From: Steroidobacteraceae bacterium | GTDB lineage: Bacteria > Pseudomonadota > Gammaproteobacteria > Steroidobacterales > Steroidobacteraceae | Assembly: GCA_035603345.1 (NCBI GenBank) | Contig: DATNKO010000057.1 | Coordinates: 7-64,006, forward strand | Direction of reading: 5' to 3' | DNA: 64,000 bases | Shown here: positions 59,073 to 59,686 of the stretch, one piece after another | Numbering within the stretch: the first letter of the stretch is position 1 | Layout of the letters: every line of letters starts with the position of its first letter | Program-made: the position numbers and the translations under genes | The notes under the pieces: model-generated | The model's input: only the letters and a program-made list of their open reading frames with translations | The model's database searches: none | What the model was told of the DNA's origin: nothing

Positions 59073-59306
59073 TCACGGACTCTTCTCTCGCCGGTTGATT
59101 TGCGGTGCCGTAATTACAAACCACAGGAACGCTCCACAAACCCCGCCCGCAACCGCGCATATTAAGGCTGAGTAAATCGACCACGCGACGGTCCACTCCG
59201 AATGATTCCGCTGAAAAAGAACGAGGAAACACGGCAACGAGACGCACAGCTCAAAGCCCGCCATGTGCCCGAGAAGGGACGAACCTAACCATTTAATGAA
59301 CGTCAT
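59073..59306 (-). CDS. small membrane protein, candidate immunity protein for the orphan toxin
   Basis: 77 aa with 2-3 hydrophobic helices. Its ATG overlaps the upstream stop (ATGA). Confidence 0.45.
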   Translation of the reverse strand: MTFIKWLGSSLLGHMAGFELCVSLPCFLVLFQRNHSEWTVAWSIYSALICAVAGGVCGAFLWFVITAPQINRREKSP

Positions 59307-59686
59307 GGATTAGTAGGACATTGTTCCGAAGTGCCGAGGTATCCCGCGGTCGTGCCGGCAGCGAAGCCTGCTGCACCAAAGGTTGTACCGAAATAAAGGT
59401 GAGCTTCGTAGGGGACCGCCTCCGGCGCTCCAAAGAGGGAAACTGCCACCGCTACGCCGAAGACGGTCCCTCCGATATATCCGACCATGCCAGTATTGAC
59501 AACATTTCCCGGTTCCTTCGAGTTGTTGAACCTGCTTGGCGTGCCTCCATCCGGGCACGTCGTCGGGGGCGGCGGGGACGGGGGACCACACCCCGGCCCT
59601 CCACCGCCCTTTTCGCACTGCGGAGGTGGGAGGTCGGGTAGCTGCGGCTGATTCCCTTGCGGCAAATACGCTAAAACAGACGACAC
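59303..59686 (-). CDS. orphan toxin C-terminal cassette, glycine-zipper type
   Basis: Begins with LPQGNQPQLP, encoded by the 24-nt handle shared with the Rhs gene. It then has a Pro/Gly/Cys linker and GMVGYIGGTVFGVAVAVSLFG / FGTTFGAAGFAAGTTAGYLG. Confidence 0.5.
   Translation of the reverse strand: MSSVLAYLPQGNQPQLPDLPPPQCEKGGGGPGCGPPSPPPPTTCPDGGTPSRFNNSKEPGNVVNTGMVGYIGGTVFGVAVAVSLFGAPEAVPYEAHLYFGTTFGAAGFAAGTTAGYLGTSEQCPTNP
59641..59664 (-). repeat. 24-nt handle, orphan copy
   Basis: GCTGCGGCTGATTCCCTTGCGGCA is identical to 60334..60357. Confidence 0.85.

Follow-up and report, generated by a model that had tools for sequence, protein, structure and literature searches.

A toxin array behind a truncated Rhs gene

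A 64-kb stretch of DNA from a Steroidobacteraceae bacterium (the window; coordinates are window positions unless another contig is named) carries, at 59073-59686, a pair of overlapping open reading frames (ORFs) that an earlier note had described as a displaced toxin/immunity module able to swap into the tail of an Rhs gene. The pair belongs to an array in which all genes lie on the minus strand and follow one another in the order Rhs 3′ fragment with a phospholipase A2 (PLA2)-like tail, 90-aa immunity ORF, a short shared sequence (the handle) followed by a Pro/Cys linker and a predicted helical-hairpin toxin, 77-aa immunity ORF, and the remnant of a third tail. The pair lies behind the main tail and its immunity gene, and the pairing of toxin and partner recurs at four loci.

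The Rhs gene at the head of the array (60023..61432) is truncated at its 5′ side. Its frame opens directly after a TGA, reads L-YDANGNATARQ..., continues for 469 codons to 60026 before the stop, and contains no canonical start before GTG 61354. TIGR03696 recognises an Rhs-associated core at codons 132-223 (34.6 bits, with a cut-off of 32.5) that ends in ...LTLTDPSGF, and a core ending in DPxG with a tail that is variable among homologues identifies the gene as an Rhs polymorphic toxin. To this extent the earlier mention of an Rhs gene was right, but what is present is a 469-codon 3′ fragment: the N-terminus, the signal peptide and most of the cocoon are absent from the window, which contains no other long Rhs ORF. 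The core is followed by a Cys-rich linker of approximately 135 aa, a "pre-toxin" region (60358..60763, minus strand), between DPSGF and the first copy of the handle (60334..60357). This copy reads (V)PQGNQPQ and forms the hinge between the linker and the PLA2-like domain (60026..60333). The latter (QLPEVVVTAPYP..WCGPGG..CQLHDMCY..C-GP) has both the Ca-loop WCGPGG and the CQLHDMCY motif and gives sub-threshold matches to PF00068 (27.8 bits, below the cut-off of 32.1) and PF08398; its homologues P0006-P0012 are annotated PF00068. The 90-aa ORF behind it (59694..59966), which has hydrophobic segments and no Pfam or NCBIfam match, is the presumed immunity gene for the PLA2 tail.

The second copy of the handle, (L)PQGNQPQ, lies at 59641..59664, 29 nt past the stop of the 90-aa ORF, and marks the 5′ edge of the homology between this orphan and others. 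It is contained in the orphan toxin ORF (59303..59686, minus strand, 127 codons), in which the handle is followed by a Pro/Gly/Cys linker (59564-59640) and the toxin domain (59306-59563). The sole start of this ORF is a GTG without a Shine-Dalgarno sequence. Its stop overlaps the start of the 77-aa ORF (59073..59306) in the ATGA that the note had reported (CC ATG A), and the 77-aa product has two hydrophobic segments and no match in Pfam or NCBIfam. Several features of an orphan module are present: the pair shares its strand with the main tail and immunity gene and comes after them, it has no initiation signals of its own, and its 5′ end consists of main-gene coding sequence. The homology at this 5′ end is 24 nt in phase, which is far below the usual length, and it is located at the hinge between linker and toxin, not in the core.

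The shared 24 nucleotides

The 24-mer GCTGCGGCTGATTCCCTTGCGGCA, which reads TGCCGCAAGGGAATCAGCCGCAGC on the minus strand, is present exactly twice in the window, at 59641-59664 and 60334-60357. Both copies are on the minus strand in codon phase 1 and encode (V/L)PQGNQPQ, within V-PQGNQPQ-Q in the Rhs fragment (at approximately codon 359) and L-PQGNQPQ-L in the orphan (at codon 8 of 127), so that exact match counts and codon phase agree with the earlier description. There are no further copies in the window at up to 3 mismatches. A chance origin of the pair was rejected, with zero matches to the 24-mer in 100 dinucleotide-preserving shuffles. We also looked for extended homology around the copies and found no similarity flanking the 24 nt on either side. 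The copies are 693 nt, or 231 codons, apart, with the PLA2/immunity unit framed exactly by these direct repeats. Within the handle, the only repeat is a direct GCCGCA...GCCGCA, and an inverted-repeat core is absent.

The spelling of the handle is unusual. PQGNQ is encoded by CCG CAA GGG AAT CAG, with the minority codons CAA, GGG and AAT (p approximately 0.008 under Rhs codon usage), and this full spelling is found in five copies: in the window Rhs gene and the window orphan, in the orphans of two metagenomic loci described below (L001 and L011), and at position 18794 of a third (L002). The hinge of the main tail in L011 has the first four codons (CCG CAA GGG AAT) in common with the window handle, and that of L002/P0003 is one non-synonymous base off, with GAT for AAT. 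At the DNA level, the core common to the orphan starts in L001, L011, L002 and the window is GCCGCAAGGGAATC; the handle is thus present in homologous loci, the absence of which, together with a lack of swapped variants, the earlier note had named as grounds for giving up its proposal. Between three orphans whose proteins are otherwise 35-55% identical and whose flanks have diverged, 19 nt of the handle do not vary. That the copies have this rare-codon spelling in common points, in what is a small sample, to identity by descent or to gene conversion of the DNA itself, and not to convergence of the peptides.

A second nucleotide-conserved stretch in the three orphans is found at 59530-59563 (columns 156-186 of alignment A3), where TTCP(D/N)GGTPS is encoded at the start of the toxin domain. 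It has three synonymous changes, whereas the handle has none where its flanks diverged. Since the window and L001 orphans diverge directly after it, this stretch may be a further junction. We also searched 241 million metagenome records with a 21-nt version of the handle, which returned only a contig with the same array (L013) and one other (L014). The latter has a 23-nt match (2846-2868), including the exact CCG CAA GGG AAT CAG spelling, in a GC-rich glycosyltransferase-like ORF; being antisense and without Rhs context, it was judged a chance match.

The hinge is a point of exchange one tier below the Rhs core

Homologues with a tail behind DPSGF (P0003-P0016) show where tails are exchanged. 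In P0003, P0004 and P0005, the linker is 96% identical to that of the window up to ...QTVPQG and then continues as DQNQQQPC... into a different, Gly-rich hydrophobic tail. In these genes the DNA is identical to the window through GTGCCGCAAGGG and unrelated beyond. In P0013-P0016, the common part is shorter and consists only of DPSGFC(T/S)PAWACKQDAGSGLG(K/Q)CRVCGGSDPG(DAG), after which the proteins diverge. Finally, the PLA2 domain is found from LPE(I/V)VVTA onward behind quite different linkers (P0006-P0012). Because other genes retain the linker and change the tail at PQG, the hinge is a true point of exchange one tier below the usual boundary of the Rhs core, and by this comparison the tail is built from at least three exchangeable tiers. 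The earlier note had placed the swap point not at DPxG and instead at a second junction after a Cys-rich linker, implying two-tier modularity; the junction is indeed approximately 135 aa downstream of DPxG and behind that linker, with P0003, P0004 and P0005 switching at PQG and P0013-P0016 earlier.

Most of the divergent toxin tails (P0001-P0016 and those of contigs L005-L011) end with a cysteine 1-4 residues from the C-terminus (…CP, …CGP, …GKC, …CAP), and the linkers are Cys-rich as well. The terminal cysteines and Cys-rich linkers hint at disulfide-closed toxins that act in the cell envelope.

A small family of predicted membrane toxins with a dedicated partner

Searches of two collections (5.8 billion proteins and 1.84 billion representatives) yielded a toxin family of seven proteins, namely the window protein, P0002, P0017, P0018, P0019, P0020 and P0021, to which we add the L011 orphan, read from the contig of a metagenome-assembled genome (MAG). 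The conserved domain extends from Cys44, in the motif C-P-[DN]-G-x-T-P-S-x-x-N-N, to Cys123-Pro. An AlphaFold2 model based on a six-sequence alignment has a disordered N-terminus and two helices, at residues 58-85 and 93-117, with a predicted local distance difference test (pLDDT) score of 70-80 over residues 50-120 and a mean of 62. Runs of [GAS]xxx[GAS]xxx[GAS] are present at residues 69-87 and 106-118, and a single stretch is strongly hydrophobic (windows starting at residues 62-75). The small-xxx-small runs fall on both modelled helices, and by its motifs the protein is of the glycine-zipper type. The earlier note had read the C-terminus of the GTG 59686 ORF as two glycine-zipper helices: motif runs and modelled helices bear this out, but the protein does not match a curated glycine-zipper family of Pfam. 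A pore-forming action, of which the note had been reminded, is suggested by the composition and by a model of medium confidence. Attempts to assign a fold via the PDB and Foldseek gave nothing significant and only generic membrane hairpins.

Behind the toxin, a homologous two-helix membrane protein of 75-85 aa is encoded at four loci, and homologues of the 77-aa ORF stand behind those of the toxin in L001, L011, L015 and L020. Divergence runs in parallel in four toxin/immunity pairs, with identities of 55/43/35% for the toxins and 51/42/30% for the immunity proteins. Toxin and small membrane protein evidently travel together and diverge together, and the 77-aa ORF is, from this pairing, the predicted cognate immunity gene. 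In L015, the reading frame of the toxin domain is part of a larger ORF that runs past the contig start, so the type of carrier lies beyond the contig. In L020 and L021, the toxin is cut inside its linker and has no handle, and the immunity gene is intact.

The proteins constitute a very small, previously unannotated family of predicted helical-hairpin membrane toxins with a dedicated two-helix immunity protein. By analogy with glycine-zipper and ionophore toxins, we infer that the toxin is a Gly/Ala-rich helical hairpin, closed by a disulfide between Cys44 and Cys123, that would insert into the target inner membrane from the periplasmic side and dissipate the membrane potential; it is probably membrane-depolarising. 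The periplasmic side is suggested by the likely disulfide, the membrane-embedded immunity protein and the disulfide-rich, envelope-acting PLA2 sister toxin.

Handle-led orphans at other loci

In L001 (Logan ERR11523672), the 143 nt that begin with the first base of the handle and extend through the Pro/Gly/Cys linker have 96.5% identity with the window, and the sequence upstream of them is unrelated and non-Rhs. The L001 toxin has diverged, and the immunity gene is 72% identical at the nucleotide level. L011 (MAG JOPF154) is more distant, with an Rhs core only 63% identical to that of the window. The hinge of its main tail reads ...CCACAGCCGCAAGGGAATCCGCAA... (PQPQGNPQ), and its orphan, which encodes a homologue of the window toxin/immunity pair, begins with TGCCGCAAGGGAATCAGCC, 3 nt past the stop of the preceding immunity gene. 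In L002 (ENA ERZ25039501), a handle-led orphan is present at 18794, 27 nt past an immunity stop.

L002 also has an unusual organisation. It contains a unit of an ORF6N gene, a helix-turn-helix repressor, a 1061-aa primase, a 369-aa tyrosine integrase, an Rhs 3′ fragment and an immunity gene, and this unit is tandemly duplicated. The two 7-kb units (4573-11654 and 11655 to approximately 18780) share 5.9 kb at 99.98% identity, and past CGGSDPGDAG they have different tails. The Rhs tails appear to ride on an integrative element in this contig. A conserved element of approximately 57 nt with a sharp 5′ edge (GCAGGATAGSCTCGCGG.TGCTCTTGTTATACATC...) opens each L002 unit and is found behind toxin/immunity cassettes: the copies are at L001 968-1024; L002 4571-4627 and 11655-11709; L005 9251-9308 and 13863-13919; and L007 1667-1723. 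It is absent from the window.

The carrier and the tRNA-Arg island

In the window, the Rhs frame is cut before YDANGN and joined approximately 20 nt from an intact tRNA-Arg gene (junction 61430-61453). The first Rhs codon lies approximately 20 nt downstream of the 3′ end of this gene (61454..61530, minus strand, anticodon ACG, identified with ARAGORN). An exact direct repeat of 50 nt covers the tRNA sequence from its anticodon loop to its 3′ end and a further 5 nt. It has an attL-like left copy at 61449..61498 and an attR-like right copy at 57242..57291; a repeat search also gave a weaker third copy at 57122-57171. Between the tRNA repeats lies an island of 4.2 kb (57292-61448) in which the entire toxin array is contained. 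The GC content of the island is 0.47-0.56 over much of the segment versus 0.60-0.70 in the flanks, and there is no integrase within 57292-61448. Taken together, the 4.2-kb segment looks like the remnant of a tRNA-Arg island.

The same array exists elsewhere on a long carrier. Three other, independent metagenomic contigs, L013 (= L018, JGI 3300005591), L016 (JGI 3300053216) and L017 (ENA ERZ27256628), are 100% identical to the window from 61430 down to approximately 59117, both handles included. All three read through ...SSSYQYS|YDANGN... into upstream Rhs sequence, with the breakpoint at 1036/1037 in L013 and at 4021 in L016, and their Rhs ORF, of at least 1810 aa, runs off the contig. The array is also carried by samples ENA ERZ28654822 and SRA ERR1700728. 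The 4 kb of upstream Rhs sequence in L016 have no counterpart elsewhere in the window. We considered whether the join of tRNA and rhs in the window could be a misassembly, which is unlikely: there is no repeat at the join, and a separate ENA scaffold (L022) matches window 64000-50022 at 99.986% with the same tRNA|rhs junction, with the proviso that the window and L022 could both derive from one population. The same array is therefore found both on a long carrier and on a stump.

Full-length relatives from Microflora Danica MAGs labelled 'uncultured Gammaproteobacteria' (L005 2237-8332 and L009 5285-11467) have a Sec signal peptide and SpvB, FG-GAP and RHS domains, and no VgrG, PAAR or type VI secretion system (T6SS) genes were seen beside them. 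Their build is TcB/TcC-like, which suggests a T6SS-independent route for toxins with immunity genes and orphan arrays.

Two further observations link the window to L002. The L002 contig holds 3′ fragments of tRNA-Arg together with the island-end sequence of the window (57292-57584), and a second copy of this island end follows an integrase fragment. In addition, at L002 19420-19430, an rhs fragment ends within 5 nt of the window breakpoint, and behind it come a hairpin, the beginning of an integrase gene and a tRNA-Arg fragment. A single rearrangement, involving an rhs gene and an element that targets tRNA-Arg, may have produced the rhs breakpoints both in the window and in L002.

Origin and fate of the cassette

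We consider it probable that the pair at 59073-59686 represents an orphan cassette, toxin with immunity gene, from an Rhs-type polymorphic toxin system and forms the second module of the array, a reading that comprises the toxin action proposed above, the origin of the array and a rare reloading through the handle. The hinge would have received an incoming PLA2/immunity module, and the older module, displaced downstream by it, would have kept the shared piece of coding sequence. A deletion between the two in-phase repeats, removing 231 codons, would give an in-frame fusion of the linker with the glycine-zipper toxin on the Rhs carrier, reading TVPQGNQPQLPDLPPP, with loss of the PLA2 immunity gene. 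The two-helix membrane protein would block the toxin in the membrane of the producer. Recombination between short repeats is expected to be rare but selectable, and with so little homology the orphan would seldom be reloaded. In the window itself a swap would arm nothing, since the Rhs gene there is a 3′ fragment, and it is plausible that with its carrier truncated the array can act here only as an immunity store or a recombination reservoir.

Several points weigh against this reading. Toxicity, membrane action and immunity are predictions only; the toxin has no Pfam or NCBIfam hit at E up to 1, no PDB sequence hit and no Foldseek hit below E = 1, and its model draws on only six sequences at a mean pLDDT of 62. 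The carrier is truncated in the window, and a promoter/terminator scan of 57200-61600, which was uninformative, gave no promoter-like site. At 24 nt, the handle is approximately 20 times shorter than the 522 bp used in Salmonella, the only homology for which loading of an Rhs orphan has been shown by experiment. Since no handle bounds the cassettes at the 3′ end, the handle delimits no complete unit, and handle-to-handle cassette units were rejected for this reason. Most directly, the toxin is not found fused to an Rhs linker in the 5.8-billion-protein or the 1.84-billion-representative collection. The earlier note had proposed that the module could swap into the Rhs tail by homologous recombination and had asked for variants in which the 59.3-59.6 kb domain replaces the PLA2 domain. 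No such variant exists in the searched collections, and with no fusion to an Rhs linker, a very short homology and a truncated carrier in the window, we do not uphold this part of the proposal.

Much of this would also be expected if the handle were the scar of an illegitimate join that displaced the module, with no further exchange, and if the array were a decaying remnant that is kept, if at all, for its immunity genes. The window Rhs gene is truncated and promoter-less, the third tail and the TPR gene downstream are visibly degraded, the same toxin occurs cut in its linker and without a handle in L020 and L021, and no loaded variant turned up in the searched collections. Independent random scars would not, however, share an edge, and the same 5′ edge is found in four orphans in different contexts, including a second species with an Rhs core that is 63% identical; moreover, the handle has no synonymous change while its flanks diverged. 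We therefore think this explanation unlikely. The sharp 5′ edges, and handle repeats that flank the 693-nt PLA2/immunity unit as a Campbell-type insertion would leave them, would also suit a target of a site-specific recombinase, with cassettes inserted and excised in an integron-like manner by the tyrosine integrases near related Rhs tails. Such an integrase is located directly upstream of the Rhs 3′ fragments in the tandem 7-kb units of L002, which differ only in the tail. Those units, however, diverge at another junction, after CGGSDPGDAG, the 3′ ends of the cassettes are not handles, and in the window the island has no integrase and the handle lacks an inverted-repeat core, all of which makes a recombinase target very unlikely.

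It is also conceivable that the toxin is a small membrane-peptide or bacteriocin gene of 61 aa, starting at Met67, that has its own immunity gene and nothing to do with Rhs, the match in the handle being incidental. Gene callers do predict an ORF of 58-61 aa in several metagenomes (P0017, P0019 and P0020). Met67 is not conserved in L011 or P0018, however, and we rejected it as an internal start; there is no Shine-Dalgarno sequence, and the conserved domain begins 23 residues upstream, at Cys44. With the toxin domain of L015 in frame with a larger protein and a 24-nt in-phase match that is not due to chance, an independent gene is extremely unlikely. A bolder idea, which we hold to be quite unlikely, is that the PQGNQ-coding core GCCGCAAGGGAATC is a selected exchange signal at the DNA level, by which cassettes would move in and out of Sec-exported TcB/TcC-like Rhs toxins while being ferried on integrase-primase elements and tRNA-Arg islands. 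A signal of this kind would explain why direct repeats flank the 693-bp PLA2/immunity unit exactly, and the near-coincident rhs breakpoints in the window and in L002 would then be two products of one integrase-mediated event.

Relation to known systems

Orphan toxin modules are thought to be a reservoir for re-arming contact-dependent or secreted weapons, and little is known about how they are displaced and reloaded. The orphan cassette described here resembles the Rhs orphans of Salmonella LT2 (STM0291/0292) and Dickeya (Poole 2011, PMC3150448; Koskiniemi 2014, PMC3967940) in lying on the same strand behind the main tail and immunity gene, in having no start of its own and a shared start sequence, and in combining a variable toxin with a small cognate immunity gene. 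Loading of an orphan has been demonstrated experimentally in Rhs, after duplication, via 522 bp of 95% identity (PMC3967940). Known orphans share hundreds of bp of the Rhs core, however, whereas the orphan in the window shares 24 nt approximately 135 aa past DPxG. The carriers differ as well: those known are PAAR- or VgrG-linked, in contrast to the Sec-signal/SpvB/FG-GAP (TcB/TcC-like) type found here, which in the window is truncated.

The closest precedent is provided by the VENN-demarcated orphans of contact-dependent growth inhibition (CDI) loci. Some of these share with the main gene only the sequence coding for VENN, their homology starts exactly at VENN, and recombination at VENN has been proposed (PMC3150448). 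Differences are that CDI relies on CdiA two-partner secretion and not on Rhs, that the motif is VENN versus PQGNQ(PQ), and that CDI modules run from VENN to VENN, whereas here the 3′ ends are not bounded by the handle. In CdiA-CT toxins, too, a flexible linker connects an entry domain with an ionophore domain, both of them modular, and the immunity proteins are small membrane proteins (Halvorsen 2024, PMC11630599). The two-tier tail, in which a conserved N-terminal sub-domain precedes an exchangeable, membrane-active C-terminal domain, the polymorphic toxin/immunity pairs and integral-membrane immunity proteins of these bipartite toxins are matched in the window; the ionophore domains, by contrast, are predicted five-helix bundles, compared to a two-helix hairpin of approximately 85 aa here, and there is no sequence similarity. 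Two-tier modularity itself therefore has a precedent, the CdiA-CT domains being modular in the same sense (PMC11630599). TelE, EsxX and TspA of type VII secretion systems and CdzC/D of Caulobacter are glycine-zipper toxins that depolarise membranes; they too are modular, end in short hydrophobic helices rich in Gly and Ala, and are countered by small membrane proteins. The window toxin differs from these in lacking a Pfam glycine-zipper match, and the flanking Cys pair and CP(D/N)GxTPSxxNN are specific to its family.

What is new is the minimal second-tier handle, the small toxin family and the non-T6SS type of carrier; the logic of orphans, polymorphic tails and cognate immunity is already known, so that the advance is an incremental one. 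The position of the exchange point is resolved to the single base, and the point is spelled identically in rare codons in at least 2 other genomes or metagenomes, which makes minimal-homology or motif-guided exchange testable. The loci also indicate that tRNA-Arg islands and integrase-primase elements carry Rhs 3′ ends, together with toxin cassettes, in uncultured Gammaproteobacteria from soil.

Downstream end of the array

Behind the 77-aa ORF, a third, Pro-rich orphan tail remnant (58810..59072, minus strand, ...QQMIPFLPFVAPGVYFPGAPMQPMLLPGFIA) ends in ...PFVAPGVYFPGAPMQPMLLPGFIA and has homologues among the tail ends of Rhs genes in L005 and L007. It is followed by a degraded TPR frame (58236-58815, minus strand), in which approximately 80 codons extend upstream of the ATG without a start codon, and, as the last item of the array, by a 75-aa membrane ORF. 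The island ends beside the attR-like repeat with a conserved segment (57292..57584) that is present twice in L002, at 91% and 84% identity.

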